IMG/VR virus record: IMGVR_UViG_3300050821_010409
Location: 30,160-94,159 of that record
Direction: 5' to 3' (one strand)
DNA: 64,000 bases
From: a virus
Lineage: Duplodnaviria; Heunggongvirae; Uroviricota; Caudoviricetes
Below are positions 9,446-41,518 of this stretch, piece after piece. The notes below the pieces were generated by a model that was not told where the DNA came from, did not search any database, and saw only the letters and a list, made by a program, of their open reading frames with translations. Both the position numbers and the translations under genes were made by a program. How positions within the stretch are numbered: the stretch's first letter is position 1; each line of letters opens with the position of its first letter.

Positions 9446-10258
9446 ATGTACTGGCGCTTTTTCACTGCCCGGCCACGGGCATTGGTAACCCAGGCGAGGG
9501 CGGTCCGTGCCGCAGCCGCCGGGCTGGCCCTGTCAGCAGCCGTCCTGTGCTTCGCCTTGCTGCCTTCCGGGCCAGCGCGCGGCCAGTCCGATGCCGTGGC
9601 GCCCAGCGCCCCTGGCACGGCCCAGGGCGCCTACACCGACCTGGGCAGCCCTAGGCAGGACAAGGCCCTGCGCGCGGCAGCCGCCCTGCAGGCCACGGCG
9701 CAGGCAGACGCGCTGGTCACGCGCACGGCCGCACTGACCTACCACCAGAGGCACCTCGCGCACCTGGCCCACCTGGCGCACATGGCCCGGCTGCACGCGG
9801 CAGCCAGCAGCGTGCAGGCGCCGGTGACGGTGCTGGCCAAGACCCGGTACCAGTGCGGCGATGGCGACGGGGACGGCTACGACATGCCGTGCTCGCAGCT
9901 GCGCCCCGCCACCCCGGCGCACGCTGCCCCCGTGACGGTGAGCCACCCTGGTGGCGGGAGCGCGAGCGGGACTGGCTGCTCTGACCCGAGCGGCCACCTT
10001 ACTGCTGCGCAGGTCGAGATGGCCTGGAACTGCGCGGGCGGCCCGCACTGGGCAGACAGCGCAGCAGTCGGGATCGCCACGTGCGAGTCAGGCATGAACA
10101 CGCGCGCATTCAATCCCTCGGGAGCGACGGGGCTTTTCCAGATCCTTGGGGCAGTAGTCCCTGGCGATCTTTACGACGCGCACGTCAACGCCCTGAACGC
10201 CGTGAGCAAGTTCGACGCCTCCGGCCAGTCCTGGGCACAGTGGGTTTGCCGTCCGTGA
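9446..10258 (+). CDS. secreted lytic transglycosylase (SLT-domain) protein
   Basis: Signal peptide; C-terminal ESG..N.RAFNPSGATGLFQI SLT-like motif; N-terminal domain paralogous to the next gene. Confidence 0.6.
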   Translation: MYWRFFTARPRALVTQARAVRAAAAGLALSAAVLCFALLPSGPARGQSDAVAPSAPGTAQGAYTDLGSPRQDKALRAAAALQATAQADALVTRTAALTYHQRHLAHLAHLAHMARLHAAASSVQAPVTVLAKTRYQCGDGDGDGYDMPCSQLRPATPAHAAPVTVSHPGGGSASGTGCSDPSGHLTAAQVEMAWNCAGGPHWADSAAVGIATCESGMNTRAFNPSGATGLFQILGAVVPGDLYDAHVNALNAVSKFDASGQSWAQWVCRP

Positions 10259-10290
10259 AGCGCGCCCGCCGGTACACGAAGAAGGTCATC

Positions 10291-11052
10291 ATGAGCACCA
10301 CTCATCGCGGGCGGTCAGCCGTCATCGCCGCCCTGGCTACCGCCCTGGGCCTTGCGGCCTTCCTCACGCTGCCTGCCAGCATGGCCAGCGGGCAGGCCGA
10401 CGTCCTGACGGCGCCAGCTGCCAGCGCCATCACGGCACCCTATGCCGATCCGGGCAACCCGGCCCTGGACAAGGCCCAGCGGGCCGCGTCCGCGCACGCC
10501 GCCATCGCCCAAGACGATAGTGCCCAGGCGGCCGTGGCTGAGCACGAGCACGCCTTCCACCTGCAGCACGTCGCGCACCTCCTCGTGCAAGCTTCCCTGG
10601 CCGAGCGCGCCGTCACCCGCCAGGCACCGCCCGCGAGCACGGGCGCCGTCACGGTCACGGCAGCCGTTGCCACCACGGCCACGACTACCGCGGCGGCCCG
10701 CAGCGGCACGGCTGCCCGTGCGCTGGCCTGGGCGCTGACGCAGGCGGGCAAGTGGTACGCCTGGGGCGGTGCAGGACCATCCACTTACGACTGCTCGGGC
10801 CTGGTCATGCGGGCCTACCAGCACGCCGGCATCACGCTGCCGCACAACACTGGCATGATGGTGCGCAGCGGCAAGCTGGTGCGCACGTCCAGCCCGCGCC
10901 CGGGCGACCTGGTCATGTGGGGCGGCAGCTCGCCGTACCACGTGGAGCTCTACATTAGCCACGGCCGCACCTTCGGGGCGCACCATAGCGGCACCCGGAT
11001 CGGCTACGCCAGCCTGTGGGGCTCGCCGGCCTTTTACCGGGTGGTGGCCTGA
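10291..11052 (+). CDS. NlpC/P60 family peptidoglycan endopeptidase with signal peptide
   Basis: YAWGGAGPSTYDCSGLV..HNTG..GDLVMWGG..HVELYISHG catalytic Cys/His arrangement; signal peptide. Confidence 0.75.
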   Translation: MSTTHRGRSAVIAALATALGLAAFLTLPASMASGQADVLTAPAASAITAPYADPGNPALDKAQRAASAHAAIAQDDSAQAAVAEHEHAFHLQHVAHLLVQASLAERAVTRQAPPASTGAVTVTAAVATTATTTAAARSGTAARALAWALTQAGKWYAWGGAGPSTYDCSGLVMRAYQHAGITLPHNTGMMVRSGKLVRTSSPRPGDLVMWGGSSPYHVELYISHGRTFGAHHSGTRIGYASLWGSPAFYRVVA

Positions 11053-11119
11053 AAGCGTGGCTTGTGTATCACGCAGTCGTGTAGGCTACCCCGCAGAAAG
11101 TCCTGAGAGAGGAAACCAG

Positions 11120-17308: not shown

Positions 17309-17344
17309 CCGTTCATGCCTGCGCAGAGGCAAGAGAACTGCGAC
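17309..17344 (+). repeat. solitary CRISPR repeat unit S1 (31/36 match) directly abutting the ATG of the exonuclease gene
   Basis: ccgttcATGCCTGCGCAGAGGCAAGAGAACTGCGAC, then ATG at 17345; identical to array repeat positions 7-36. Confidence 0.9.
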
Positions 17345-19168
17345 ATGATATCCATGTCCCCGGCCGACTTCATGGCCACAGCTCCCCGGGCACTGGACGG
17401 CAACACCGCCTGGGCGTCACGGTACGCCCGTGAGCTGAAGGGCGTCATCACCCGGCAGGCCACGCTGGCCCCGCGCTCCCAGCAAGTGCACCTGGGTCCC
17501 AGTGAGCTTGGAGTGCAGTGCGACCGCCAGGTTGTCGGCAAGCTGGCGGGCCTGCAGAAGACGAACAACGTCTTCGACCCGTGGCCGAGCATCGTCGGGA
17601 CAGCGATTCACGCCTGGCTGGCGCAAGCCTTCCTGGACGACAACGCCCGTGAGCGGATGCTGCGCTGGGTAACGGAGACCCGGGTCGTCCCGCACCCCGA
17701 CCATGCCGGGACAGCGGACCTCTATGATGCTTTCGAACACAGTATCGTCGACCACAAGTGCTTGGGTCCCACGTCCCTCAGCAAGATCAGGAATCGCGGC
17801 CCATCCCAGAAGTACCGGGTCCAGCTACTGCTGTACGGCCTGGGCTTCCGGGCGCTGGGCCTGCCGGTAAAGCGCGTGGTGCTCGCTGCCTATCCGCGCA
17901 CGGCGGCCACCCTGGATGGCATGTACGTCTGGGAGCGCGTGATCGCGCCGGAAGACGACGCGCTGGTCGCCCGGATGCTGGAGCGCACGGCCGTCCGCAA
18001 GCTCATAGCGGCAGAAGTCACGGCTGGCCGCATGACGTTCATGCAAGTGCCTGCTGCGCCTGATGATGACGAATGTTACGTATGTCTTGGAGCGTCAACC
18101 GAAGTCGTCACCCGGAACGGGATCCGGCCCATTGCGCAGCTGGCAGCAGGCACCCATGAGCTCCTCGTGCCAACGCTGAGCGCTGACGGGAGCCGCATGC
18201 GCACCGGCAGCTTCCAGGAAGCGCCTGTGCGGTACTTCGGGCAGCAGCCAACGTACCGCATCGTGCTGGAAGACCGGCGCCTGCGCAAGGAAATCAGGGC
18301 CACGGCTGAGCACGGCTGGTTCGTGACGGACCGGGCGCGCAGGCAGCCTAATGGCGCCAGAATCGTCCGGCACCAGTGGCGCAAGGTCACTGCCGAGCTT
18401 CAGCCGGGAGACTTGCTCCAGCCGCTGCGGCGCAGTACCGCCAGCATGCCGGACATGATGGACGTCGCGGTGGCCCAGGGCTTCACCTTTGGTGACGGCA
18501 CGATCGGGCAAGGCCAGCGACCCGCAACACTGTGCATTTTTGACGCGAGCAACGGCAAGGATGTGATGCTCCGGTTCTTCCCGGCCTTCAAGCAGTATGA
18601 AGGCGTGAAGCACATTTACGGGCTCCCCAGGTTCTGGAAGGAGCTGCCACCGCTGAGTGAGTCACGCTCCTTCCTGCTGAGCTGGCTAGCCGGGTACTTT
18701 GCCGCAGACGGGAACGTCACCCCTGCCGGCCAGTGCTCGCTATCATCAGCCCGGGAAGAGGACTTGCTGTTCGTGCGCGACCTTGCAGCCGTGTGCGGCA
18801 TCGGTTACCGCCAGGTCTCCAAGAAGGCGCGCATCGGCATTAACGCCACTGAGGCCACGGATCTTTTCAGTATCGGCCTTCAACGGCGCGATCTCCCCGC
18901 ATGGTTCTTCTTGAAGGACGCACACCAGGCTTACGCACAAACTGCCAACGAGCAGCCAGAGCGGGAAAGTTACTGGAAGGTCGTATCCGTGGAGCCCACT
19001 GGCCTGGTTGAACCGGTGTATTGCGCAACGGTTAACGGCGCAGAGGCGTTCGCCCTGGCTGATGACCTGATGACGGGGAACTGCCCGTATTATCGGCCCA
19101 CGTCAGCTTATGATGGCGGCCCTGGCTGCCCAGGGACGATCATCCGGAAGCCAAAGTCCAATGATTAG
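17345..19168 (+). CDS. Cas4/RecB-family PD-(D/E)XK exonuclease interrupted by an intein
   Basis: D..DHK nuclease motif (ADLYDAFEHSIVDHK) and flanking Cys residues (GVQC; CYVC; CPYY..GGPGC) suggest a Cas4-like Fe-S exonuclease. Mature extein is ~274 aa. The ORF-track start 17315 lies inside the repeat. Confidence 0.65.
   Translation: MISMSPADFMATAPRALDGNTAWASRYARELKGVITRQATLAPRSQQVHLGPSELGVQCDRQVVGKLAGLQKTNNVFDPWPSIVGTAIHAWLAQAFLDDNARERMLRWVTETRVVPHPDHAGTADLYDAFEHSIVDHKCLGPTSLSKIRNRGPSQKYRVQLLLYGLGFRALGLPVKRVVLAAYPRTAATLDGMYVWERVIAPEDDALVARMLERTAVRKLIAAEVTAGRMTFMQVPAAPDDDECYVCLGASTEVVTRNGIRPIAQLAAGTHELLVPTLSADGSRMRTGSFQEAPVRYFGQQPTYRIVLEDRRLRKEIRATAEHGWFVTDRARRQPNGARIVRHQWRKVTAELQPGDLLQPLRRSTASMPDMMDVAVAQGFTFGDGTIGQGQRPATLCIFDASNGKDVMLRFFPAFKQYEGVKHIYGLPRFWKELPPLSESRSFLLSWLAGYFAADGNVTPAGQCSLSSAREEDLLFVRDLAAVCGIGYRQVSKKARIGINATEATDLFSIGLQRRDLPAWFFLKDAHQAYAQTANEQPERESYWKVVSVEPTGLVEPVYCATVNGAEAFALADDLMTGNCPYYRPTSAYDGGPGCPGTIIRKPKSND
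18083..19081 (+). mobile_element. intein (333 aa) with a LAGLIDADG homing-endonuclease domain
   Basis: Starts CLGASTEVVT (Hint block A), contains TAEHGWFVTD (block B), two LAGLIDADG-like motifs (VAQGFTFGDGTI; WLAGYFAADGNV), and ends ..FALADDLMTGN followed by Cys. Confidence 0.65.
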
Positions 19169-19352
19169 CCTGTTCCTGGGACTCGCAATCCTGGCGGCTA
19201 CGCTATGTGGCATCCTGGGTGGATGGGTTGCCAGCCAGAAGGGGCGCACGATCGATGAAGGCGCCTTGCTCGGTTTCTTTTTCGGCTTCTCCGGAGTCCT
19301 GACAATGCCTGCGCAGAGGCAAGAGAACTGCGACGCGGCTACCACATCATGA
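19161..19352 (+). CDS. small 2-TM membrane protein whose C-terminus runs through solitary repeat S2
   Basis: ATGA overlap with the exonuclease stop; hydrophobic; reads ..TMPAQRQENCDAATTS*. Confidence 0.3.
   Translation: MISLFLGLAILAATLCGILGGWVASQKGRTIDEGALLGFFFGFSGVLTMPAQRQENCDAATTS
19299..19334 (+). repeat. solitary CRISPR repeat unit S2 (35/36)
   Basis: ctgAcaatgcctgcgcagaggcaagagaactgcgac. Confidence 0.9.
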
Positions 19353-20819: not shown

Positions 20820-21050
20820 TAAACGTTCACCTCCTCCCGGGCGGGATTACATGCCCGGGAGATGCTTGGTGCGACGCATCGCTGCCTCCTCTCGTCGTGT
20901 ATCTCGCAGTATACTAGACCTCATGGTGAAGCCCAGCGAGTGCCGGAACGCCGAAGAGATCGCCCGCGAGGAACGCCGCGCGTGGCGCTGGAGCGCGCGG
21001 ATGTGGCTCTACCGGGGCTATCTGCGGCTGCGCGGCTGGTGAGTGTGCGG

Positions 21051-21563
21051 CTAGCCGGCCCGCACTGGCACGCGCCGCTTCTTGTTGAGGGAGGCCACCT
21101 TGCGCTCCAGGGCTAGCTCGCGGCGTTCGAGGTCCTTGTCCATGGCGTCGTTGAGCTCTAGCGTGAGAAGCAGGGTGTTAAGGATTGCCGACGCTGTAAG
21201 CACCTTCTTCACGTGCCCTTCGGGCAGCAAGCGCATGGCCGTGTCCATCTCCGCCTGGAGGACCCTGATCTGGCAGCGCCAGTGCCGCATGCGGCGATTG
21301 GCGTAATCGCGTACTTCAGGAGCATTCTCTGCCAGCCGGTACGTTGACTTGGCGCCGCGACGATGCGTGAGGACGCACTGCTCACCGCGTGCTTCGCGCA
21401 GATGGCGGATGCCCGCGTGAACCTGGCTGGCGGTAAGGCCGGACGCGCGCATGATGTCCTGAAGGGTTACCTCTGCATCCACGCTCAGGCTCTGCAGGAC
21501 AGCATCGGCCTTGTCATCCGGGCTCATGCCCGCGAACAGCCCGGTGTCAGCATCTATGACGGT
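21051..21563 (-). CDS. winged-helix transcriptional regulator-like protein
   Basis: ..TLQDIMRASGLTASQVHAGIRHLREARGEQCVLTHRRG.KSTYRL wHTH pattern. Confidence 0.45.
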   Translation of the reverse strand, partial: TVIDADTGLFAGMSPDDKADAVLQSLSVDAEVTLQDIMRASGLTASQVHAGIRHLREARGEQCVLTHRRGAKSTYRLAENAPEVRDYANRRMRHWRCQIRVLQAEMDTAMRLLPEGHVKKVLTASAILNTLLLTLELNDAMDKDLERRELALERKVASLNKKRRVPVRAG

Positions 21564-21570
21564 CATGCGC

Positions 21571-23481
21571 TCAAGCTCCTTCCATGATCTTCGCAATGGC
21601 CTCATCCAGGCCCATGCCCGTGAGGTAGCGACGGAACTGCTCAGCCTCTGTCTCTACGTCGCCGAGGTCACTCAAGACCTCGTCGTCACCTGCGAGGCCA
21701 AGGGAGACGCTTAGCCGGGATGCCCGCCGTAGCGCGTCCTTAGCATCAGCCAGGAAGATGAGGACGTCGAGCCTAGTCAGGCTGGGCTTAGCTGGCGATG
21801 GTGCGGACGGGGTTGCCGTGGAACCTTCCTGCCGGTCATCATGCCGGAGTGCGCTCATGACGCCGGCCTTGCAGTCCTGGTCCCGGAAGACTGCCCTGGC
21901 TACCTCGGGATTGCCGAGAGCCCGCTGGATCACCCGTGCCTGCTCGGTTACGGGCCTGGCCTGCATCTGCTCTGGCGTAACAGGACGCTGGTGCTGCTCA
22001 TCCTCGCGCAGCCAGGACTGCGGCTGCGTGCCTAGCTCAGCTGCGAAGTCCCTTAGGGAAAGCTCGCGTGCTTCGGCGTCCTGGAGAACTGCTACTGCTT
22101 GAGCTGGATCGGCTTTCGACTGAACGTACTGCACAGCCAGGCGGGTGGGAAGCGAAAAGATCTTGTCCTCAAGCACAAGATCTTTTAGTGCTTTGCCTGT
22201 CATGCGCCGTGTCGCCAACCAGGTTCGCGACTGCCCGAGAATGCGCTCCGCGATGTCGTACGCTGCTGAGACACTTTTCCGGTCGGAATCTGCTGGCTCG
22301 CCTAGCGCTAGCGTAGTCTGCCACCATGCCTGCCGCCATGCAGTCTCAGCCTGCGCGCGATCCTGCTCGGCTGCCTTCTCATGGAGGGCTGCCTGCTCGA
22401 TTCTTATCATGCGCCGTACCGTATCATGAGACGGTACGGCCTGCAAGAGAACTAACAGTGCACGCCGCAACTCCGCCAGCCGCCGGATCAGGTCATCCAG
22501 CACCACCAGGGGCACCCCGGCATCCCGCACGTGCGCGACCAGCCGGCCTTCCCAGTCCGCCCACTGCGCGAGCACCTGCTGGTAGCCAGCGAGCTCCTCC
22601 ACGGCAGCAGGCGCGTGCTGGCCTGCGATGGCGGCTTCTGCCCGCAGCCGCTCGCCGGCCGCGCCCCAGGCCTTGCTCAGCACCATGCTGTTGTCCGGCA
22701 GCCCTGCCTCGCGCCCGAACTGGCCTTGCGTCAGGCCGCGCCGCAAGGCGTCCACCGCGGCCGGGACGTACTGCTCTGCCGGGCGCGCCGGGATCACGTG
22801 CCGTGGCTGCGGGAGGACAGCCGGGGTCAGGCTCTCGTCCTCGTCATCCAGCACCGCAGCAGCGTCCGCGCGCAGCAGCTCCTGCTCGCGCCGGGCCTGC
22901 TCCGCCGGGTGCACGGACGGGTAGTACTCGCCGCCCTCCATGTCGCAGTTCTCTTGCCTCTGCGCAGGCATTGTGAAGCCGTCCGCCACGATGCGCTCCG
23001 CTGCCAGCAGTGCTGACACGCGCTCCTGCTCGCGCCGGGCTTCCCGGTCCCGGGCCGCCTGCTGGCGGGCGTTCACGGCGGGCAGCGGCCCCGTCAGGCC
23101 CGTGCTGTCGTGGTCAGTGCTGGTGAACTTCGGGCGTTCTTGTGAGCCATCTGGCCCACCAGCCAGGGCCTGCTGGTCGCGCCGCACGGTGGCGTGACCC
23201 GCGTTCACGGCTGCCGCGATCTTGCGCTGCGTGTAGCCGGCATCCGTGAGCAGGGCGACGATCTCGCGCCGCCGCTCAGCGGAGAACCGGTCGAAGCCGA
23301 ACTCGGCGACGGCCCAGGCCTGCACGCCCTTATAGCCGAGTGCCTGCCAGTCGTTCTCGGCCACCGCCCGTGCGTACAGCACCGCGGTGCCCTGCAGCCC
23401 CAGCCGGATCTGCTCAGCCCGGTCAGCTGCCGCGCGCCGCAGCCCCTCTGCTGGCCGCACTGCTGGTGGCGCCATCTTCAT
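21571..23481 (-). CDS. large HTH DNA-binding protein (636 aa); long paralog of 23478-24059 carrying an in-frame solitary CRISPR repeat
   Basis: N-terminal 90 aa and the segment VLAQWADWEGRLVAHVRDAGVPLVVLDDLIRRLAELRRAL are paralogous to the neighbouring 193-aa gene. A ~120-aa paralog-specific insert contains the repeat, read as MPAQRQENCD. Confidence 0.5.
   Translation of the reverse strand: MKMAPPAVRPAEGLRRAAADRAEQIRLGLQGTAVLYARAVAENDWQALGYKGVQAWAVAEFGFDRFSAERRREIVALLTDAGYTQRKIAAAVNAGHATVRRDQQALAGGPDGSQERPKFTSTDHDSTGLTGPLPAVNARQQAARDREARREQERVSALLAAERIVADGFTMPAQRQENCDMEGGEYYPSVHPAEQARREQELLRADAAAVLDDEDESLTPAVLPQPRHVIPARPAEQYVPAAVDALRRGLTQGQFGREAGLPDNSMVLSKAWGAAGERLRAEAAIAGQHAPAAVEELAGYQQVLAQWADWEGRLVAHVRDAGVPLVVLDDLIRRLAELRRALLVLLQAVPSHDTVRRMIRIEQAALHEKAAEQDRAQAETAWRQAWWQTTLALGEPADSDRKSVSAAYDIAERILGQSRTWLATRRMTGKALKDLVLEDKIFSLPTRLAVQYVQSKADPAQAVAVLQDAEARELSLRDFAAELGTQPQSWLREDEQHQRPVTPEQMQARPVTEQARVIQRALGNPEVARAVFRDQDCKAGVMSALRHDDRQEGSTATPSAPSPAKPSLTRLDVLIFLADAKDALRRASRLSVSLGLAGDDEVLSDLGDVETEAEQFRRYLTGMGLDEAIAKIMEGA
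22942..22977 (-). repeat. solitary CRISPR repeat unit S3 (33/36), minus strand, co-oriented with its host gene
   Basis: Plus strand reads gtcgcagttctcttgcctctgcgcaggcattg, the reverse complement of the array repeat. On the minus strand an ATG immediately follows the repeat. Confidence 0.9.
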
Positions 23482-24059
23482 GAGCCTTCCTCCTTGCCGC
23501 GGGGGCGGGCGTGCGCCAGGGCGTCACGGTAGCTGGCCAGCCGCGCGATCAGGTCATCCACCACGGCCAGCGGCATCCCCGCGTTCCGGATGTAGCGCAG
23601 GAGCAGCAGCTCGCGATCGGCCCACTGCGCCAGCAGCTGCCCGGCCAGCAGCCGTTCCTGCTCGGCCAGCTCCGCGGCCTGCTGGCGGCGCAGCGCGTTG
23701 CTGTCCAGGGCAGCCTGCTGCCGGGCCGTCGGGCTGGGCACCAGCAGGCCGTTCTCCCGCTGGTCCTTGTTCACCGTGCTGTGCCCGGCCCCGGTGGCCG
23801 CCGCGATCTGCCGGGTGGTGTAGCCGGCCTGGGTCAGCAAGGCGACGATCTCCCGGCGGCGCTCGGCGGAAAACCGGTCCGGCCCGAACTCGCCTGCCGC
23901 CCAGTCCGGCACGCCGCCGTAGCCGAGCGCCTGCCAGTCCTTCTCCACGATGGCCTGGACGTACAGCACGGCAGCGCGCTGCACGTTCAGCCGGATCTGC
24001 TCGGCCCGGGCATGGGCGGCGTGCTGCCGCGCGCTGGTCATGACAGTGGTAACGGTCAC
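23478..24059 (-). CDS. HTH DNA-binding protein (193 aa), short paralog of 21571-23481
   Basis: RBS GGAAAGGAG before the GTG; ..DWQALGY..DRFSAERRREIVALLTQAGYTTRQIAAATGAGHSTV. Confidence 0.55.
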   Translation of the reverse strand: MTVTTVMTSARQHAAHARAEQIRLNVQRAAVLYVQAIVEKDWQALGYGGVPDWAAGEFGPDRFSAERRREIVALLTQAGYTTRQIAAATGAGHSTVNKDQRENGLLVPSPTARQQAALDSNALRRQQAAELAEQERLLAGQLLAQWADRELLLLRYIRNAGMPLAVVDDLIARLASYRDALAHARPRGKEEGS

Positions 24060-24083
24060 GGGTGCGCTCCTTTCCTGGCACGT

Positions 24084-24109
24084 AGTCTCTTACAGTATGG
24101 TATAGGCTC
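24084..24109 (+). promoter_or_regulatory. promoter motif AGTCTCTTACAGTATGGTATAGGCTC before an ATG
   Basis: GTCTCTTA(T/C)AGTAT subfamily, shared with 20207 and 45212. Confidence 0.45.
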
Positions 24110-24114
24110 ATGGC

Positions 24115-24303
24115 ATGGCCTTCACCCTCATGACGCCTTACGGCCCGGCCACGTGCCAGGAGTGCGGGGCGCCTGCCACGGTGTCCCGGCTGGCGCCGCT
24201 GGCCGGGGGCGTGGCCAGCCCGCAGTACTTCTGCGACGCGCACCACCCGGACGGCCCGCCGTGCCCGCTGTGCGAGGGCCACGGTCGGCTAACGGCGCCA
24301 TGA
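24115..24303 (+). CDS. small zinc-ribbon protein (62 aa)
   Basis: Leaderless promoter motif directly upstream; CQEC..C..H..C..C. Confidence 0.45.
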   Translation: MAFTLMTPYGPATCQECGAPATVSRLAPLAGGVASPQYFCDAHHPDGPPCPLCEGHGRLTAP

Positions 24304-24353
24304 GCATCCCTGTAAGAGACGCGCAGCCAGGCCAGCCCATCATCTCGTGCCTC

Positions 24354-24481
24354 ATGACCGTGCCGCCCTCATCATCGTGCCAGCCAGAAGCCCAATGACC
24401 GTGCCGCCCTCATCGTCATGCCAGCCAGAACGCCAGTGTCCCCCGCGATCATGCAGCCATCGTCGTAGTGCCAGCCACGAG
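24354..24481. repeat. imperfect ~41-bp tandem repeats (ATGACCGTGCCGCCCTCATC(A/G)TC(G/A)TGCCAGCCAGAA..) x2.7
   Basis: Seen directly in the intergenic region. Confidence 0.8.
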
Positions 24482-24612
24482 ACCACTGCCCAGGATTTTT
24501 CGCGGGAAGTCTGTACGCGTCATCGGCAGGAGGTGTAGTGTCGGGACCTCCGGAGCTCGTCGGGATGACGCACCCGGGCCAGCGCGCCGCGTCTCCCGGG
24601 TGACCGGGGACT

Positions 24613-25799: not shown

Positions 25800-26050
25800 G
25801 GCCTCAATCCCGCCAACCAGGCACCAGCCAGCCCATCATCTCGTGCCGCCATCAGACCCCAGCCAGCATGGACCAGCCAGCCGCCAATCCGGTGCCCGCC
25901 AGCACAGCCAGTCGGCGTTAGCCAGCCAAGCAGCCAAAGTACCGCATCCCGCTAAGGTCAAGCCAGCCCAGGACACGGTGAGCACGCAGCCCATCCGCTC
26001 CAGCCAGCCATCCAGCCAGAGCACCGTAGCCAGCCATGGAACAGGAGCCT
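25800..26050. repeat. CCAGCC(A)-rich low-complexity tract; shares the 21-bp motif GCCAGCCCATCATCTCGTGCC with 24338-24358
   Basis: Seen directly; it continues into the QQPA-repeat coding region of the helicase N-terminus. Confidence 0.75.
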
Positions 26051-26054
26051 GCCG

Positions 26055-28001
26055 GTGACGTGCGGCGTCTACGGCGAGATCGCCGTCGATGGCCGTCACG
26101 TCATCGTGGTGGCAGCCGGGCAGGACTGGGAGGTCAACCGGGCGGCGGCAGCCATCCGGGCCATGACGGCGCCATTTAGCAAGACCCGGCCGCCCGGCGC
26201 GCTTGCCGGGCCGCTGACCTGGGCAATCGTCACCCAGCTGGCCCTCACGTTCAATGGCGGCAGCCTCGGGCAGTGGGCTCCCGGCCCGCGGTTGCAGGAC
26301 TGGGTGCTGGCGGAGTTCACCCAGCGCACTGCACTGCCCGCGCTTGCAGCCAATCCCCAACAGCCAGCCCTCGTAGATGAGCCAGCAGCCGCTGACGTCC
26401 TGCCAGCCAACGCCCCACAGCACGCGGCCCATCCAGTACCGCCAGCCTTCGTCAACGAGCCCGCAGCCAATGTGCAACAGCCAGCCATTACTCCGGTGAC
26501 GGCAGCCAACAGGGATCAGCCAGCCATCATTCCGGTGCCCGCAGCCCATGCGCAGCAGCCAGCCACCGCACCTGTGCTGGTGCCGCGCCACTACCAGCTG
26601 GAGGGCGCCCGCGTCATTGCCACCACCGGGAAGGCGCTGATCTTTGACGAGGCCGGCTGCGGCAAGACGGTCACGACGATCCTGGGGCTGCTGGAGCGGC
26701 AGCGCCTCGGGCACGCCATCTTCCCGCTCGTCATCCTCGTGCCGTCCTGGGACGTCGGCGAGGTCTGGGCACGGCACGCCCGCGACTGGGCGCCGAACTG
26801 GCCACCGCCCGTCATGCACGGCGGCAAGAACCGGCAGCCCCGCCCGGATGGCATCATGATCACCACGTACGCCACCGCCCGGCTGGACGCCGCTAGTGCC
26901 GGGGGGCCGCTGGTGACGCTGCGAGCGCGGGCCGTGGTCTGCGACGAGGTGCACCTGACGCGCAATCACGCGTCCTTGCTGTCCCAGGCCGTGCGCCGGA
27001 TCGCTGAGCACGCGCAGACCTTCGTCGGCCTGTCCGGCACGCCGGTCACTCGTGACACCGGGGACGTCTATCCCGCGCTGGCCGCCATGGACCCGGCAAG
27101 CTGGCCGTCGCGCGACGCGTTCATCAAAAGGTACTGCTTCACGGTCGATGATGGCTACCAGCGCAAGGTCGAAGGGCTGGCGCCGCTGGCCGAGCCGGAG
27201 TTCCGCGCCGTCCTCCTGGGGCAGTACCGCCGGGTCGCCAAGGCCGACGTGCTGAGCCAGCTGCCGCCGAAGGTCTACTCAGTGCGCACGGTGGCCATCC
27301 CGGCGCCCTGGCGCGCGGCGTACACCGGGATGGCGAACGACATGCTGGCGCAGCTGCCGGAGGACGGCGGGGACCTGCCGGTGATGAGCACCCTGGCGCA
27401 GCTGACCCGGCTCTCCCAGCTGGCCAGCTCAGCGTGCGACGTGACCGTCCGCACGGAGCTGAATGAGCTGGGGATGGAGGTCAAGCGCTATGACGTGACG
27501 CTGAAGGCGCCGAGCTGGAAGGCCGACTGCCTGCTGGAGATCCTGGCCGAGCGGCGTGGCCAGCAGGTCGCGGTGTTCGCGGTCAGCAAGCAGCTCATTG
27601 ACATTGCCGGGGCAGCGTGCAAGGACGCGGGTTACCGGTGCGGGTACATTACCGGCGGCCAGGGGAAGGCGGCCCGGCGCAATGATATTGACGCTTTCCA
27701 GGCCGGACAGCTGGACGTCATCCTGGCGACAAGCGGCGCAGGAAGCCTGGGAATTACATTGACTGCAGCCAGCACGGTTGTGATGCTGCAGCGGTCCTGG
27801 CAGCTGGACCAGGCGCTGCAGCCAGAGGACCGAGCTCACAGAATTGGCAACGAGAACTGCTGCATAGAAGTGATTGATATCATTGCTAAAAGTACTGTAG
27901 ATGAACGTGTACGGACTGTTCTTCGCGGGAAGGGCGGCCAGTTGTCAGAACTTGTCAGAGACCCGCGGGTAGTGCGTGAGCTGATGGGGGGCCTCCGGTA
28001 A
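26055..28001 (+). CDS. SNF2-family (DEXH) helicase
   Basis: Q-motif RHYQLEG; DEAGCGKT (motif I); DEVHLTRN (motif II); LSGTPV (motif III); QPEDRAHRIGN (motif VI). N-terminal ~90-aa domain plus QQPA-repeat linker. Confidence 0.75.
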   Translation: MTCGVYGEIAVDGRHVIVVAAGQDWEVNRAAAAIRAMTAPFSKTRPPGALAGPLTWAIVTQLALTFNGGSLGQWAPGPRLQDWVLAEFTQRTALPALAANPQQPALVDEPAAADVLPANAPQHAAHPVPPAFVNEPAANVQQPAITPVTAANRDQPAIIPVPAAHAQQPATAPVLVPRHYQLEGARVIATTGKALIFDEAGCGKTVTTILGLLERQRLGHAIFPLVILVPSWDVGEVWARHARDWAPNWPPPVMHGGKNRQPRPDGIMITTYATARLDAASAGGPLVTLRARAVVCDEVHLTRNHASLLSQAVRRIAEHAQTFVGLSGTPVTRDTGDVYPALAAMDPASWPSRDAFIKRYCFTVDDGYQRKVEGLAPLAEPEFRAVLLGQYRRVAKADVLSQLPPKVYSVRTVAIPAPWRAAYTGMANDMLAQLPEDGGDLPVMSTLAQLTRLSQLASSACDVTVRTELNELGMEVKRYDVTLKAPSWKADCLLEILAERRGQQVAVFAVSKQLIDIAGAACKDAGYRCGYITGGQGKAARRNDIDAFQAGQLDVILATSGAGSLGITLTAASTVVMLQRSWQLDQALQPEDRAHRIGNENCCIEVIDIIAKSTVDERVRTVLRGKGGQLSELVRDPRVVRELMGGLR

Positions 28002-28022: not shown

Positions 28023-28058
28023 CTGGCAGTGCCTGCGCAGGGGCAAGAGAACTGCGAC
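28023..28058 (+). repeat. solitary CRISPR repeat unit S4 (34/36), immediately downstream of the helicase stop
   Basis: ctggcaGtgcctgcgcagGggcaagagaactgcgac. The 11 bp upstream are also identical to S5, giving 47 bp of identity. Confidence 0.9.
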
Positions 28059-28060
28059 AC

Positions 28061-28261
28061 GGTTTCGACCTTGACGGCTGCCTGGACCGCCCAGCCCTGG
28101 CCCGGCTGGCGAATGACCTCTACGACGCCGGGCATGAGGTCTACGTGGTCACCGGAGGCCTGGCGGACGCGGGTGAGTGGACGCTGGCAGCCCGGGAGCA
28201 GAAGCCGGCCGCACTGGGCGTCGCCACGGCCAGCGACGCCGTCCGGCTGCTAGTGCTGTGA
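28061..28261 (+). pseudogene. start-less HAD-like ORF fragment (GFDLDGCLDRPALARLANDLYDAGHEVYVVTGG..)
   Basis: HAD motif I (FDLDGCL) sits at the very 5' end with no ATG/GTG/TTG in frame between the repeat and the motif. The frame differs from the repeat's MPAQ frame. Confidence 0.35.
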
Positions 28262-34938: not shown

Positions 34939-35412
34939 GTGATGCTGGCGCTCTCGTTCACCGCCTCCCGGCAGGGCTTCAATCCGCCGCCGGCCATCGC
35001 GCTGGGCATGCTGGCCGGACTGCCCCCTGCGAGCCGGTACGTCACCGGCGCGTGCCGGGGCGGTGACGCGTTCCTCGGCCGCTGGCTGCTGGCGAACCAC
35101 CCAGGCGCGGAGCACATCGTGATCGTGCCCGCCGACCGCAGCCGGGTGGATGCCTGGTGGCTGGACCCGGCACTGCCGCGCGCGAAAGTGACCGTCTTCG
35201 CGATGCCCCCGGGCACTGCCTACAAGGACCGCAACGCGATGCTGGTGAAGCGGGCTGACCAGGTCACGGGCTTCCCGGCGTTCCCCGAGGACGACCCGCG
35301 CTCGGCGCGCAGCGGCACCTGGCAGGCGATCCGGATGGCGCGGGCGGCCGGGAAGCTGCTGCAGTGGCAGTGCGTCCTGCCGCCGTACCCGGCAGGAGGA
35401 CCGCAGGCATGA
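34939..35412 (+). CDS. hypothetical protein (possible nucleotide-binding Rossmann-like fold)
   Basis: VTGACRGGD..IVIVPADRS segment. Confidence 0.4.
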   Translation: MMLALSFTASRQGFNPPPAIALGMLAGLPPASRYVTGACRGGDAFLGRWLLANHPGAEHIVIVPADRSRVDAWWLDPALPRAKVTVFAMPPGTAYKDRNAMLVKRADQVTGFPAFPEDDPRSARSGTWQAIRMARAAGKLLQWQCVLPPYPAGGPQA

Positions 35413-35570
35413 ACGGCCGACTGGCCCATGACCGGCGCACTGCCGTGGACTGGCGCGCCAGGTTCAGGCTGGCAGTGCCTGCGCAGGGGCAAGAGAACTG
35501 CGACGATGAACTGACCCAGTACTGGACCGCGCTGAAGGGCGCCTACCGCGTGCCGGCGAGGCTGCCGTGA
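35409..35570 (+). CDS. 53-aa coupled ORF that contains solitary repeat S5 in frame (..LAVPAQGQENCDDELTQYW..)
   Basis: ATGA overlap upstream and GTGA overlap downstream. Confidence 0.3.
   Translation: MNGRLAHDRRTAVDWRARFRLAVPAQGQENCDDELTQYWTALKGAYRVPARLP
35469..35504 (+). repeat. solitary CRISPR repeat unit S5 (34/36)
   Basis: Same variant as S4, with 47-bp identity including ccaggttcagg upstream. Confidence 0.9.
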
Positions 35571-36193: not shown

Positions 36194-36667
36194 GTGAGCG
36201 CTCCATGCGAGCACCCGGACGGCTGCCAGGCCCGCGCCATCTGGCGGGTGGCTGTGGGCAGCCGCAGCAGTGACGCCCAGCTGAGCTGCCGTCGGCACAT
36301 GAGCCAGGCGTGCCAGGCGATGGCGGAAGCGGAATTCCCGCGCGCGGCCGTCGTGCTGTCGGTGATGGCCGTGCGCCAGGGCGATGAGGGCCGGTGCGTG
36401 ACCGGGACCGCGCCCCGTGGCCGGGCGGTGACGACGGAGCAGAAGCAGGCCGTGCTCGCGCTGGTCCTGGAAGCCTGGCAGGCGCAGCCCCGGCAGCGGC
36501 TCGGCCAGCTGCTGGCCAGCTGGGCCTGTGCCACCTGGGCCGCCGGGGACAGCGGCATTGCCGGGTCACGCAGCGCACTGGACGGCCTGCAGTTCACTGA
36601 GGACGGGGACCTGGCGCATGGCCTGCTGCTCTGGGTCACGCGCAACAAGGCCGGGGAGCAGCCGTGA
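36194..36667 (+). CDS. hypothetical Cys-rich protein
   Basis: GTGA coupling. Confidence 0.4.
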   Translation: MSAPCEHPDGCQARAIWRVAVGSRSSDAQLSCRRHMSQACQAMAEAEFPRAAVVLSVMAVRQGDEGRCVTGTAPRGRAVTTEQKQAVLALVLEAWQAQPRQRLGQLLASWACATWAAGDSGIAGSRSALDGLQFTEDGDLAHGLLLWVTRNKAGEQP

Positions 36668-37056
36668 AGGTCACCAAGGAGGAATGGGCCACCGCGCGCC
36701 GGATGTGGCCCTGCGACGAGGACGCTGACTTCAGCGTGACCATAACCATGCCTGCGCAGGGGCAAGAGGACTGCGACACCGTGACCGCGCCTGTCGTGGA
36801 CGGCACGTCATGGCTTGTGCTGTCGTGTTCCGTGCACGGTCGCGTGATGGCCGCCAGCACGTCCTGGGAGCTGGGCGCCCTGCTCACCGCGGCCGAGCGG
36901 CACTACGTGCTGCGGCACCTGCGCCCGCGGTCAGTGAAGGCCGCCACGGGCACCGGGCAGGCAGCCGTCCCGTGCGGGACGTGCCCGTCCTGCCAGGCGC
37001 CGTACTGGATGCCGCACCACGCCGACTGCAGGAAAGCAGGCCATCATGATCAGTGA
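36664..37056 (+). CDS. hypothetical Cys-rich protein with solitary repeat S6 in frame (..TMPAQGQEDCDT..)
   Basis: GTGA coupling. Confidence 0.4.
   Translation: MKVTKEEWATARRMWPCDEDADFSVTITMPAQGQEDCDTVTAPVVDGTSWLVLSCSVHGRVMAASTSWELGALLTAAERHYVLRHLRPRSVKAATGTGQAAVPCGTCPSCQAPYWMPHHADCRKAGHHDQ
36742..36777 (+). repeat. solitary CRISPR repeat unit S6 (30/36)
   Basis: ataaccatgcctgcgcaggggcaagaggactgcgac. Confidence 0.8.
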
Positions 37057-37884: not shown

Positions 37885-38234
37885 GCGTGCGCCAGTGGGC
37901 CAGCGCGGACGGCTGGACGCTCACGCTCACCTCCGCTTCCCGCCAGGCCGGGTCGTTCCGGAGCTGGCCGGAGTACCGCCTCCACGGCGTGGCGTGCACG
38001 GTCCCGCAAGCGCAGGAGATCGTAGCATGGCGCGAGGCCTGCACCTGCGGGGGAATCGCCGCCTGCGTGGTGCTGAATGACATCCGGGTCACCGAGGAGG
38101 AAGCGCTCATGCTCATCAACGGCACGGACGTGATGACGCTCCTGCTGCACGGCAGCACGACGCCAGCGGTGCCAGCGGTGCCGGCGCGGCTGCGCGCCCG
38201 GAAGCTGACGATGGCGGAACTGGGGGCGCGGTGA
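37881..38234 (+). CDS. small protein ending ..LRARKLTMAELGAR*
   Basis: ATGA coupling; C-terminus encoded by junction repeat J1. Confidence 0.4.
   Translation: MSVRQWASADGWTLTLTSASRQAGSFRSWPEYRLHGVACTVPQAQEIVAWREACTCGGIAACVVLNDIRVTEEEALMLINGTDVMTLLLHGSTTPAVPAVPARLRARKLTMAELGAR
38191..38234 (+). repeat. junction repeat J1 (TGCGCGCCCGGAAGCTGACGATGGCGGAACTGGGGGCGCGGTGA)
   Basis: ~30-bp near-identical DNA element at the gene 3' end / next start; encodes RARKLTMAELGAR*. Confidence 0.85.
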
Positions 38235-38467
38235 ACGACGACGGTTCCTTCACGGCCTGGATCATGACGCGGTACGTGAACTGCGCCCTGGTCACCGCGG
38301 ACGAGGCCCGGGCCCTCCTGGGGCTGGGCAGCAGCGGCGAGTATGCCCCCGAGCCATGGCCGTGCCTGCCGGGAGAGCCCTGGGGCACCGTCACGGGTGC
38401 CTGGCGCCGCCCGGCCCCGGTGCTGCGCGCCCGGAAGCTGACGATGGCGGAACTAGGGGCGCGCTGA
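38231..38467 (+). CDS. small protein ending ..LRARKLTMAELGAR*
   Basis: GTGA coupling; C-terminus encoded by J2. Confidence 0.4.
   Translation: MNDDGSFTAWIMTRYVNCALVTADEARALLGLGSSGEYAPEPWPCLPGEPWGTVTGAWRRPAPVLRARKLTMAELGAR
38424..38467 (+). repeat. junction repeat J2
   Basis: tgcgcgcccggaagctgacgatggcggaactaggggcgcgctga. Confidence 0.85.
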
Positions 38468-38778
38468 TGGCCCGCATCTCCGGGCGGGCAGGCTGGGCGA
38501 TCACCCTGGACCCGTACCGGGCCTTCCAGGAGCGCTGGGTCCTGGACGGGATCAGGATGACGATGGCGTGCGCGCAGGACGTCGTGGCGGCCCGGCCCGG
38601 CCTGACCGTCAGCTACAGCATGCGGGACAGCGGCACGGCCGACGTGATCGAGCTGTCCGGCATTGAGCTGACGGCCGCTGAGGCGCGGGCAATCGCCCAT
38701 GGCGCTGACCCGGTGACGGTGCTGCTGCCCGGCTGGCCGCGCGCCCGGAAGCTGACGATGGCGGAGCTGACGGCATGA
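38467..38778 (+). CDS. small protein ending ..RARKLTMAELTA*
   Basis: TGATG coupling; C-terminus encoded by J3. Confidence 0.4.
   Translation: MARISGRAGWAITLDPYRAFQERWVLDGIRMTMACAQDVVAARPGLTVSYSMRDSGTADVIELSGIELTAAEARAIAHGADPVTVLLPGWPRARKLTMAELTA
38739..38778 (+). repeat. junction repeat J3
   Basis: gcgcgcccggaagctgacgatggcggagctgacggcatga. Confidence 0.85.
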
Positions 38779-39038
38779 TGAAGGTCCGCACCCGGGCCCG
38801 GGAAGGCACGGCGCTGCGCTTCAGCGGCGACATCACCGCGGACTGGGCCGCCATCTCGGCGATGGCCGGCCCGCACGCCAGCATTGAAGACGGGAAGGTC
38901 ATCATCAGCTGCCCGGTCACGCTCAACCGCACGGAGCTGAAGCCCGGCTGGCTGCTGCTGGCCCTGGACGGCGCGGACGGCCGCCTTGTCTTGACCCCCA
39001 TGGCCTTCCGGCAGCAGTTCGAGGAGCTGGCGCCATGA
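38775..39038 (+). CDS. hypothetical protein
   Basis: ATGA coupling. A 30-bp duplicate of its own 5' end (ATGATGAAGGCCCGCACC) follows at 39035. Confidence 0.4.
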   Translation: MMKVRTRAREGTALRFSGDITADWAAISAMAGPHASIEDGKVIISCPVTLNRTELKPGWLLLALDGADGRLVLTPMAFRQQFEELAP

Positions 39039-39260
39039 TGAAGGCCCGCACCTGGGGAATCCCGTGAGCGCGGCGCGGCTGGCGTTCGAGGCCCGGCTGT
39101 GGTGCCAGGGCCTGTGGCTGGCGGCGTGGGACTGCGGCATTGCCGGCGCCGTCGTGGTCCTCGTCCTGGTCACCGGGTACCCGGTGATGCTCGTTACCGC
39201 GTGCCTGATGGCGCACTGGCTGCTGGGGACCCGGCTGTAGCCGGAGGAGGGAGCTGGCCC

Positions 39261-39683
39261 GTGGACGCCGGGCCCTGCACGTGCTGCGGCCGGGTGCTGC
39301 TGCTGCCCTACCGCCGCCAGGGCTGGTGCGCGTCGTGCTACAGCCGCTGGCGCGCGCTGGGCAAGCCGCCGTCCCTGCCGCCGCCCGCGCGCCAGGGCGC
39401 GCCGCGCACCCGGCTGCTGGCAGCCTGCCCGTCGTGCGGCAACGACGAGGGCGGCTACTGCCGGGGCTGGTGCGCACGCTGCTACCGGCGCTGGCTGCGC
39501 ACGGGCCGGCCGGAGCAGGGGCCGCCACCGCCGCAGCGTAGCCTGGACAAGGCCGGGCACCTGGCTGACTGCCAGTACCTGCTGGAGCAGGGCATCACCA
39601 GCGCGGCAGAGCTGGCCCGGCGCCTCGGCGTGCACCCCGACACGGTGCGCGGCTACCTGCGCGAGCTGAGGACGCGGCCCTGA
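39261..39683 (+). CDS. zinc-finger plus C-terminal HTH DNA-binding protein
   Basis: RBS GGAGGAGGG; two CxxC..CxxC pairs; ITSAAELARRLGVHPDTVRGYLREL. Confidence 0.45.
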   Translation: MDAGPCTCCGRVLLLPYRRQGWCASCYSRWRALGKPPSLPPPARQGAPRTRLLAACPSCGNDEGGYCRGWCARCYRRWLRTGRPEQGPPPPQRSLDKAGHLADCQYLLEQGITSAAELARRLGVHPDTVRGYLRELRTRP

Positions 39684-39985
39684 TGGCGGCCCGGCACTGG
39701 ACGCTTGACCAGGAGCGCAACGCGCAGCGCGACGTCACGGGCTGGCGGCTGGCCATGCGGGCCCGGACCAGGGACGAGGAACGGCTGCTCGCCGCCTGCG
39801 GGCTGACCGTGGCTGAAGGCTGGCTGCGCGGCGCCTTCGTCACGCAAGAACAGGCCGAGGCCATCATCGGCGGCGCGGACCCGCTGGAGGTGCTGCTGGA
39901 GCAGCGCTCGCCGCTGCGCGCCCGGAAGCTGACGATGGCGGAGCTGACCGGGCACCCGGCTGCTGGCACGGCAGGCCGCTGCTGA
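39683..39985 (+). CDS. small protein containing ..LRARKLTMAELTGHPAAGTAGRC*
   Basis: Contains junction repeat J4. Confidence 0.4.
   Translation: MAARHWTLDQERNAQRDVTGWRLAMRARTRDEERLLAACGLTVAEGWLRGAFVTQEQAEAIIGGADPLEVLLEQRSPLRARKLTMAELTGHPAAGTAGRC
39916..39947 (+). repeat. junction repeat J4
   Basis: gcgcgcccggaagctgacgatggcggagctga. Confidence 0.8.
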
Positions 39986-40197
39986 TGGCGAAGCCCCGGG
40001 CAGCGCTGACGGCTGGCGACCACGTGATCATCACCAGCCGCGATCATCCCTGGTACGGCAGCACGGGCGTGCTGAGCGCCCGGTTCCACTCGCCGTCCGT
40101 GCCGGGGCTGGCCTGGATCGTGACCCTGGATGACGTCTGGGGCCAGACTGCCGTCGCGGCGGATGAGATTGCCAGGACGGGGCGCGCTCGTGGCTGA
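39985..40197 (+). CDS. hypothetical small protein
   Basis: TGATG coupling. Confidence 0.4.
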   Translation: MAKPRAALTAGDHVIITSRDHPWYGSTGVLSARFHSPSVPGLAWIVTLDDVWGQTAVAADEIARTGRARG

Positions 40198-40206
40198 CAA
40201 TCGTGG

Positions 40207-40242
40207 CTGGCAATGCCTGCGCAGAGGCACGAGAACTGCGAC
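40207..40242 (+). repeat. solitary CRISPR repeat unit S7 (35/36), followed 1 nt later by ATG of a 5-codon ORF
   Basis: ctggcaatgcctgcgcagaggcaCgagaactgcgac gATGGATAGCGGCTGA. Confidence 0.9.
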
Positions 40243-40279
40243 GATGGATAGCGGCTGACACGGCGCAGGGGGGCCAGGC

Positions 40280-41125: not shown

Positions 41126-41518
41126 GACGGCCCTTTCCTGTGAGGCGTATGCCAGACTCCATCATACTTTACCTGGTGACGTGGGTTATACTACAAGAGA
41201 CAAAATGGCGATGAAAAGGAGGACGGTCATGGCATGCGACAGCTGCGGCGCGCGGCGCGGGCACCTGCCCGGCAACCGGCGGCGGGGGCGGCGGCCGGAA
41301 GGGGAAGAAGCCCGTTGACAACAAGAAGGACATGCACAAGCACGACTGGACGTTTGACGGCTCGAAGACCGAGCGGCGCGGCAGCGGCCTGTACCTGATC
41401 ATTACCTACAAGTGCCTGAACAAGAACTGCCCTTCCCCGGTCAGCATCGTGGAGAAGAAGGTAGAGGACTGATGACGCGAGCCAGACCGGGAAAGACCCG
41501 GTGCAGTAGGATGACGGC

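Follow-up and report, generated by a model that had tools for sequence, protein, structure and literature searches.

Solitary CRISPR repeat units, or Racr, are single phage repeats that are intergenic, usually lie behind their own promoter in elements without cas genes, and mimic host repeats (Faure et al. 2019; Camara-Wilpert et al. 2023, PMC10651486). The prevailing view of such repeats in phages is that they are intergenic decoys against host Cas proteins. The repeat described here, S3, is placed differently. It lies inside a gene for a 636-amino-acid (aa) protein with an N-terminal helix-turn-helix (HTH) domain, in a 64,000-nucleotide (nt) stretch of phage DNA (IMG/VR record IMGVR_UViG_3300050821_010409, positions 30,160–94,159; the whole analysed stretch is referred to as the window). 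Like the Racr units, S3 is a single phage repeat with no other beside it, and a Cas protein presumably recognises it in RNA form. Unlike them, it is intragenic and in frame, has no promoter-like site (none was found in 21000–24600), and is one of about a dozen copies that coexist with a cognate array and effector gene. Measured against the traits of Racr units, S3 has the isolation, and neither the intergenic, promoter-borne context nor the mimicry of a host repeat in an element without cas genes. The published search pipeline masks open reading frames (ORFs) and counts intragenic matches as probable false positives (PMC10651486). With S3, solitary repeats inside genes are shown to be real; small ORFs of the window hold at least three further copies, and one copy abuts a genuine start codon.

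Two other described systems are similar in part. CRISPR repeat-like regulatory elements (Shmakov et al. 2023, bioRxiv 10.1101/2023.03.03.530964) and crlRNAs (bioRxiv 10.1101/2024.12.27.630466) are stand-alone repeats with which a Cas effector regulates genes rather than providing defence. A likeness to them is seen in the viral contig L017, where a repeat pair lies directly upstream of a Cas12m gene. However, they lie in or beside cas loci and act via a partly matching pseudo-spacer, whereas no partial target was found for the sequence downstream of S3, nor any suggestive partial match (at most 5 mismatches in 20 nt) for the sequences that follow the solitary repeats. Virus-borne mini-CRISPR arrays (Medvedeva et al. 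2019; PMC11656645) are likewise phage CRISPR fragments away from a full locus, and the 144-nt unit that holds S3 is exactly two array periods long. To count as a mini-array, though, one or two spacers must be flanked by at least two repeats, and no recognisable repeat lies at ±72 nt from S3.

The closest relatives of the repeat itself are those of subtype V-M, earlier named V-U1 (PMC11013384). Its effector, Cas12m, uses a single CRISPR RNA (crRNA) and no trans-activating CRISPR RNA; the precursor crRNA is processed within the repeat, and DNA is bound, not cut (PMC11013384, PMC10442227). In the Cas12m2 structure the scaffold is 36 nt long, with a disordered 5' end of 7 nt, a stem of 6 base pairs (bp) that joins −22..−17 with −8..−3, and the terminal nucleotides A−2 C−1 (PMC10442227).

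The solitary repeat and its type V-M relatives

S3 belongs to the same family as a complete array in the window and, judged from its sequence and layout, is a solitary type V-M (Cas12m) CRISPR repeat. The features on which this assignment depends are:

22942–22977, minus strand: solitary CRISPR repeat S3, with a 30/30 core match (nhmmer E 7.7e-13)
46961–48512, plus strand: CRISPR array, 22 repeats of 36 nt (CTGGCAATGCCTGCGCAGAGGCAAGAGAACTGCGAC) and 21 spacers of 35–39 nt; the parent family of S3
45242–46828, plus strand: gene for a Cas12m/Cas12f-like effector of 528 aa, immediately upstream of the array

The 30-nt core of S3 (22942–22971) is identical at 30 of 30 positions to the unit of the 22-copy array and to other dispersed copies, with 0 matches expected in shuffled sequence. 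The first 6 nt of S3, TTCACA, differ from the array consensus CTGGCA. The core forms codons 171–180, MPAQRQENCD, and is followed directly by ATG GAG GGC. Both the peptide and the junction had been noted in an earlier reading made from the letters alone (the sequence-only reading), and the codon reading and the array match bear them out. The description of the repeat as solitary also holds: no partial or full repeat lies within 100 bp, the flanking segments score at background, and none is recognisable at ±72 or ±144 nt (scores of 4–7, p 0.08–0.54). S3 lies within a protein-coding gene on the other DNA strand, 24 kb away from the array. It is indeed read in the frame of that gene, as had been claimed, but this carries little weight; the repeat has no stop codon in any of the six frames, so that being in frame says little about the repeat itself. 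There was no Rfam match for the array or the region of S3. Counting S3, the window holds eight well-kept solitary copies (17309, 19299, 22942, 28023, 35469, 36742, 40207 and 43121) and four degenerate ones (14567, 14614, 46122 and 53606).

Compared by eye, with no score, the window repeat (CUGGCAAUGCCUGCGCAGAGGCAAGAGAACUGCGAC) has the architecture of the Un, Tf, Ms, Ap and Go crRNA repeats (PMC11013384 supplement); the Un Cas12m crRNA repeat, GUUGCAAUGCCUGGCUCAGGGGUUAUAGAACUGAGAC, is an example of the published layout. As in V-M repeats, it is 36 nt long with the blocks GCAAUGCCU, CAG(A/G)GG and GAACUG.GAC, has a stem of 5–6 bp that ends 2 nt ahead of the guide, and terminates in a 3' AC. The window array, like V-M arrays, has a period of ca. 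72 nt and lies beside a compact TnpB-like effector. S3 differs from V-M repeats in being alone, away from the array and inside a coding gene, and the effector of the window is a far outlier.

In the predicted minimum-energy fold of the window repeat, the stem joins CGCAG with CUGCG (−23..−19 with −7..−3). The solitary copies keep the 3' 30 nt and vary in the first 6 nt, and the core positions that do vary (13, 18, 19 and 22) are all in the predicted hairpin loop. Because the 5' end of the Cas12m2 scaffold is disordered and the first 6 nt vary in the window, the conserved core would be the part held by a Cas12m-type protein; the 30 nt are probably the counterpart of that part of the Cas12m crRNA scaffold which is ordered and forms a pseudoknot.

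A relaxed pattern (GCCTGCGCAG-N11-CTGCGAC) was used to scan IMG/VR. Members of the repeat family were found in 18 IMG/VR viral contigs, some in arrays and some as single copies dispersed along the sequence. In those contigs the arrays are adjoined by ORFs of 558–748 aa that align with the Cas12u1 model over its whole length (1e-81 to 1e-114), and array-adjacent ORFs of the relatives match a PDB entry named Cas12m at 2e-90; these relatives encode genuine Cas12m. Across the family the stem-closing pair covaries (UA 9, GC 7, AU 4, CG 4, GU 4), to a degree reached in 0 of 500 shuffles. The identical core also occurs, in solitary copies, in one unrelated IMG/VR phage contig, which has no other nucleotide similarity to the window. 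The effector of the window itself matches Pfam Cas12f1-like_TNB (5.7e-15), NCBIfam guided_TnpB, and the PADLOC models for Cas12f (2e-20) and Cas12u1 (2e-11).

The insertion in the linker of the long HTH gene

S3 is located in the longer of two neighbouring minus-strand genes, which overlap by ATGA, the stop codon of the short gene with the ATG of the long one. The ortholog P0002, from the related contig L003, serves as the main comparison. The features of the two genes are:

21571–23481, minus strand: long HTH gene, a single ORF of 636 aa in the ORF list, holding the solitary repeat
23478–24059, minus strand: short paralog, 193 aa, with the HTH block and the LAQWAD..DDLIARLA block
23161–23454, minus strand: N-terminal HTH domain, residues 10–107, common to all family members, with invariant columns in alignment A1 and a predicted local distance difference test score (pLDDT) of 83–94
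22897–23040, minus strand: 144-nt in-frame unit, codons 148–195, made up of one 19-nt duplicate and 125 nt of new sequence with the repeat
23022–23040, minus strand: upstream 19-nt direct duplicate, GCCCGGCGCGAGCAGGAGC on the gene strand (family D2, 100% identity, spacing 144)
22878–22896, minus strand: downstream 19-nt direct duplicate, 19/19 identical to the upstream copy
22939–22941, minus strand: ATG (Met181), a candidate internal start directly after the repeat, with the same junction as at the verified start at 17345
22456–22806, minus strand: second domain and LAQWAD block, residues 226–342, ancestral, 62% identical to P0002 (pLDDT 73–88 at 233–285)
21574–22452, minus strand: C-terminal extension, residues 344–636, with lower third-position G+C, absent from P0002 and the short paralog

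The two genes had been called paralogs, and pairwise BLASTP agrees: the N-terminal HTH blocks are 53% identical over 144 aa (E 3e-37) and the LAQWAD...DDLI.RLA blocks 61% identical over 46 aa (E 6e-12). At the DNA level the genes are 72% identical over 275 nt (repeat family D4). Residues 167–296 of the long protein (ca. 130 aa) have no counterpart in the short protein, and there is a further gap of 21 aa at 106–126. Homologs of the long protein are P0002–P0005 and L007. The conserved N-terminal motif RAEQIRLG...EFG.DRFS.ERR.EIV.LLT...T.R.IA is present, with invariant columns in the alignment of the family. The match to Pfam HTH_23 reaches 20.5 bits, under the curated cutoff of 24.6, and weak matches to HTH_23 and Trp_repressor fall at residues 69–113. 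By these similarities the long gene is a member of an actinophage HTH_23-like DNA-binding protein family. A scan of IMG/VR, JGI metagenomes and 185,579 genomes for further orthologs added one short contig only.

Alignment with P0002 shows that the linker between the two domains gained a 144-nt in-frame, stop-free insertion, consisting of 125 nt of foreign sequence and a 19-nt target duplication. The repeat is in the middle of the 125 nt between the 19-nt duplicates, and the period is 144 nt, or 48 codons. When the 144 nt are removed, the gene reads ...RDREARREQELLRADAAAV..., colinear with ...REREQARREMLRADAV... of P0002 at both the DNA and the protein level. A perfect 19-nt duplication flanking 125 nt is what is looked for in a transposon-type target-site duplication, and none of the other solitary copies has a significant duplication at its flanks. 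Nineteen nt is unusually long for a transposase footprint. No copy of the repeat is carried by P0002, P0003 or P0004, or by the relatives L003, L004 and L007.

The surrounding sequence is older. The acidic stretch ELLRADAAAV..DD is also found in P0002, P0003 and P0004, and the domain PRHV...RGLTQGQFG...GERLRA is 62% identical in P0002. Since the linker and second domain are present in homologs free of the repeat, this material is lacking in the short paralog rather than gained by the long gene. The sequence-only reading had proposed a paralog-specific insert of ca. 120 residues that might have brought the repeat, and had named the same insert in repeat-free phage homologs as evidence to the contrary. 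The absence from the short neighbour stands (ca. 130 aa). Repeat-free homologs have about 80 of the 130 residues, which are therefore ancestral, and do not have the 48 that carry the repeat; for these 144 nt, the 19-nt duplication and the colinearity with P0002 support the arrival of the repeat with an insertion.

No similarity of the insert flanks to the short paralog or P0003 was detectable (p 0.2–1.0), and their source was not matched in the window, 50,697 phage records or IMG/VR. The right flank has G or C at 15 of 15 third positions in the gene frame, and so is probably from coding DNA. Several candidate origins were rejected. An insertion sequence or miniature inverted-repeat transposable element would be expected to have inverted repeats at its ends, but 22897–23021 has none, and the flanks occur nowhere else in the sequences just named. 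A degenerate mini-array of three repeats (144 = 2 x 72, and the 19-mer weakly aligns to the repeat) was not significant (p 0.05–0.09), and for a diverged 144-nt tandem duplication the score of the unit against the next 144 nt was reached by 41 of 500 shuffles. Target duplications of 7–9 nt at the other copies were also rejected as an insertion signature, with at least 7 nt at 3 of 8 sites vs. 18% of random sites (p 0.16).

An AlphaFold model of the 636-aa protein, for which six sequences only could be aligned, is poor overall (mean pLDDT 60.6), with a confident HTH domain (10–107) and a confident second helical domain (233–285). Residues 165–191, including the repeat peptide, are coil with pLDDT below 50, and helices at 138–166 and 192–213 lie on either side. 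The protein probably tolerates the insertion because the inserted residues fall in a disordered loop; this loop splits a charged helix that lies between two folded domains. The gene is a clean example of a disordered linker that absorbs a nucleic-acid element with the reading frame kept.

The coding evidence indicates a single gene in the 636-aa ORF, encoding a DNA-binding protein of two domains. The ORF has no in-frame stop, and the codon-position pattern (high first- and third-position, low second-position G+C) runs unbroken through the repeat in one frame. P0002 matches residues 13–159 and 226–342 at 53–62% identity in one ORF, and the short paralog has both conserved blocks in one ORF. The same 636 aa were called in two independent metagenome assemblies, which makes an assembly artefact unlikely. 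P0002 was itself considered as two genes read through, as its linker lacks the coding G+C pattern and contains 39-nt tandem repeats, but the linker is open in the gene frame only (0 stops vs. 2–14 in the other frames).

Explanations for the retained repeat

The account considered probable overall is that a single gene received, by insertion into its linker, a V-M repeat of the phage's own family, which is most likely kept for recognition by the effector on messenger RNA (mRNA). S3 is sense-oriented in the gene, so every mRNA of the HTH gene carries the repeat. The Cas12m-like effector of the phage, or a cognate one, would bind the 30-nt core on the mRNA and perhaps cut within it. As the 30 nt appear to be the ordered part of the Cas12m scaffold, effector binding is the most likely means by which the repeat is maintained. 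One outcome would be neutral hitch-hiking on a tolerant linker; the other would be processing or regulation, dependent on the effector, of the transcript of the regulator. For the HTH gene, the consequence might be nil, cleavage of the transcript, or an extra product from Met171 or Met181. A real RNA-level interaction seems more likely than a pure passenger, while a regulatory isoform switch is possible but unproven. S3 suggests that mRNAs can have CRISPR scaffolds written into them, and it offers a concrete case in which the use of a Cas12m-type effector by a phage on its own transcripts can be tested.

Several observations weigh against this account. The effector is taken as cognate to the repeat from its adjacency to the array. 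The match of the effector to the Cas12u1 model is confined to residues 389–519 (2e-11), residues 195–518 are 24% identical to a genuine Cas12m relative, and no homolog besides itself was found among 5.8 billion proteins; the effector is very divergent, a far outlier of the Cas12m family. In the repeat subfamily of the window the sixth base pair, which covaries elsewhere in the family, is missing (A.A or G.A in its place), and the single-sequence fold is no better than that of shuffles (z −0.07). The perfect conservation of the solitary copies is compatible with recent spread instead of selection. The empty-site comparison is with one ortholog, P0002, which is 62% identical, and a deletion between duplicates in that lineage would look alike. 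Finally, the genome has many local duplications, among which the 19-nt repeat is rare (ca. 0.4% of random sites) and not unique.

A somewhat unlikely alternative is that the repeats are passengers without function, derived from the array by recombination or illegitimate copying, of which S3 survived because it was in frame, stop-free and in a tolerant loop. The absence of stops in every frame of the repeat fits this, as does an estimate from base composition that a 144-nt insert would be stop-free and frame-preserving with a chance of ca. 0.1. The sequence after the 28023 copy shares a 13-nt match with the last array spacer, hinting at array-derived fragments. However, 12 of 12 copies are sense-oriented to the local genes, in a gene map with four strand switches (sign test ca. 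2e-4 if the copies are independent). Strict conservation of the 30-nt core while the first 6 nt drift, with substitutions confined to the loop, also argues against a passenger, as does the identical core in a phage with no other nucleotide similarity.

The sequence-only reading had offered as one option that the 636-aa ORF is two genes joined by a repeat-encoded linker, with an internal restart. As an annotation this fails, given the absence of a stop, the continuous G+C pattern and the single ORF of P0002. The restart was kept alive by a junction elsewhere in the window: translation could begin also or mainly at Met181, or at the repeat's own Met171, and give an HTH-less product of 456–466 aa, possibly after a cut of the mRNA by the effector. 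The junction ...CTGCGAC|ATG is found in identical form directly before the Cas4-like exonuclease gene at 17345. That position is the true start of the exonuclease, because the repeat-free homologs from L003 and L004 align with it from residue 2 onward and show a Shine-Dalgarno sequence at the place that the repeat occupies in the window. In the wider family, solitary repeats are typically just 5' of genes in sense orientation. The window copies within or abutting ORFs are all in the same frame with (A/G)TG as first codon, and the right flank of the insert, with its 15/15 G/C third positions, looks as if taken from the start of a coding sequence. Even so, a restart is thought unlikely. No stop ends the upstream gene, so the 636-aa product would be made regardless; no promoter-like site was found upstream; no canonical ribosome-binding site lies within the repeat at the right spacing; and homologs keep both sides of the site in one protein. 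Other members of the family often have ACG, AAG or AGG at the ATG/GTG position, with downstream starts 43–103 nt away, so a portable start codon is not a trait of the family and was rejected as a rule for it.

Transcribed solitary repeats might also act as Racr-like RNA anti-CRISPR decoys that soak up the Cas12m of a host or rival phage using the same repeat, a role in which phage solitary repeat units are known for types I-F, I-C, V-A and others (PMC10651486). Cas12m systems are found in Actinobacteria such as Gordonia and Mycolicibacterium (PMC11013384), and the unrelated phage contig with the identical core in solitary copies is also in favour. This is nevertheless quite unlikely, as the phage carries its own array and effector with the repeat, and decoys would titrate its own system. 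The repeat, searched as one exact degenerate pattern only, was unmatched in 185,579 species genomes with one genome each, and S3 is part of an mRNA, not a small RNA with its own promoter.

It is very unlikely that the segment is ancestral and that the empty site in P0002 arose by secondary deletion between 19-nt repeats. Direct repeats do promote deletion, and P0003 and P0004 also have ca. 45–85 residues between the motifs REAA(K/R)R and (A)AR.QELLRADA. However, the duplicates are 19/19 identical, where divergence would be expected of lineages that are 62% identical in protein, which makes a deletion in the P0002 lineage the less likely event. The 125 nt have none of the similarity to the P0003 or short-paralog segments that common ancestry would predict (p 0.2–1.0, as above), and L003, L004 and L007 have no copy of the repeat.

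A more elaborate proposal, held to be highly doubtful, is that the dispersed sense Cas12m scaffolds form a gene-regulation device in which the phage's own effector, of a DNA-binding type, recognises and cuts the phage's own mRNAs. The HTH transcript would be split, and its output switched from the 636-aa protein to an HTH-less product starting at the (A/G)TG of the repeat or the next ATG, possibly leaderless; the effector would be loaded with guides from phage genes. Leaderless mRNA is translated well by Actinobacteria.

Other repeats, the CRISPR locus and the phage genome

The other well-kept solitary repeats in the window are:

17309–17344, plus strand: solitary repeat abutting the start codon of the Cas4-family exonuclease gene 17345–19168
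19299–19334, plus strand: solitary repeat 3' of the exonuclease gene, within the end of a called membrane-like ORF of 63 aa (19161–19352), same frame
28023–28058, plus strand: solitary repeat 22 nt past the stop codon of the SNF2 helicase; a 51-nt unit is identical with the copy at 35469
35469–35504, plus strand: solitary repeat inside a 53-aa ORF (35409–35570) that overlaps its neighbours at both ends (ATGA, GTGA), same frame
36742–36777, plus strand: solitary repeat inside a 130-aa ORF (36664–37056), read as MPAQGQEDCD; third-position G+C 0.92 before and 0.86 after
40207–40242, plus strand: solitary repeat 10 nt past a stop codon
43121–43156, plus strand: solitary repeat 29 nt past a methyltransferase gene and 45 nt ahead of the next ATG

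The copies at 19299, 35469 and 36742, all in ORFs, are read in the same frame as S3. A same-frame rule was rejected for the wider family, since crude ORF contexts in the IMG/VR loci show frames 0, 1 and 2; the frame bias of the window may be lineage-specific or due to chance. The exonuclease gene (Cas4-family/RecB-like), which is bracketed by the solitary repeats at 17309 and 19299, contains an intein (Hint and LAGLIDADG, residues ca. 250–570), and its homologs in L003 and L004 are intein-free. The sequence CTTGACGGCTGCCTGGACC, 11 nt after the 28023 repeat (28059–28090), resembles the last array spacer, CTTGACGGCCTGCCCGACC (48441–48476), with an exact match of 13 nt when the preceding CGAC is counted.

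A complete phage-borne CRISPR locus is present at 45242–48512, with the effector gene followed by the 22 repeats. No Cas1 or Cas2 was seen in the window among the top matches of a defence-system scan. The effector has a glycine at the position of the expected RuvC-II glutamate in a pairwise alignment to a genuine Cas12m relative, an alignment that is uncertain here. Just past the RuvC-I motif, the effector gene contains a degenerate sense copy of the repeat (46122–46144, nhmmer E 0.001), in the same frame (LPAQGHANG). Spacers 5 and 14 of the array are identical and lie within a 112-nt internal duplication. The array spacers have no match in the window, and one spacer prefix had none in IMG/VR. 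In two related viral contigs some of the supposedly solitary repeats form tandem pairs, separated by a spacer of no more than 5–20 nt: L017 (3300–3327 and ca. 48 nt downstream) and L024 (4407–4470). The Cas12m gene directly downstream of the L017 pair encodes 748 aa, and the arrangement suggests autoregulation of that gene.

The C-terminal ca. 290 residues of the long HTH gene have a third-position G+C of 0.5–0.77, vs. 0.8–0.93 upstream, and no homolog of residues 344–636 was found. This part may be a recent fusion or acquired extension. The related 121-kb contig L004 has two HTH-gene paralogs that are not adjacent (1634–2434 and 10001–11083), with an intein-free Cas4-like gene beside one of them; the CRISPR repeat is absent from the 21 kb of this contig that were fetched.

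A second class of DNA repeats, of 39–41-nt units rich in CCAGCCAGCC, occurs at 24349–24480, upstream of the HTH operon, and at 25855–26578, in the 5' part of the SNF2 helicase gene, where it is in frame as a QPA-rich peptide. The same class forms the 225-aa linker of P0002 (L003 1787–2247), which is open in the gene frame only. These repeats may be protein-binding iterons embedded in coding sequence. Among the small ORFs of 38175–41731, five or six share their final 35–60 nt (...LRARKLTMAEL...; families D5, D7 and D8), and are either a paralogous family with a common C-terminus or carriers of a repeated 3' element.

The window has ca. 70% G+C, and among its products are tail, virion, polymerase and helicase proteins. 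The primase-polymerase shares 41% identity with its counterpart in Actinoplanes phage phiAsp2 and, together with the gene content, identifies the source as an actinophage. No close relative with near-identical DNA was present among the 50,697 phage records. By the gene coordinates, position 1 of the window corresponds to position 81,707 of contig k141_2898272, and the window would extend ca. 15.8 kb beyond the end of that 129,861-nt contig; it was thus drawn from a longer or circularly permuted version of the genome.

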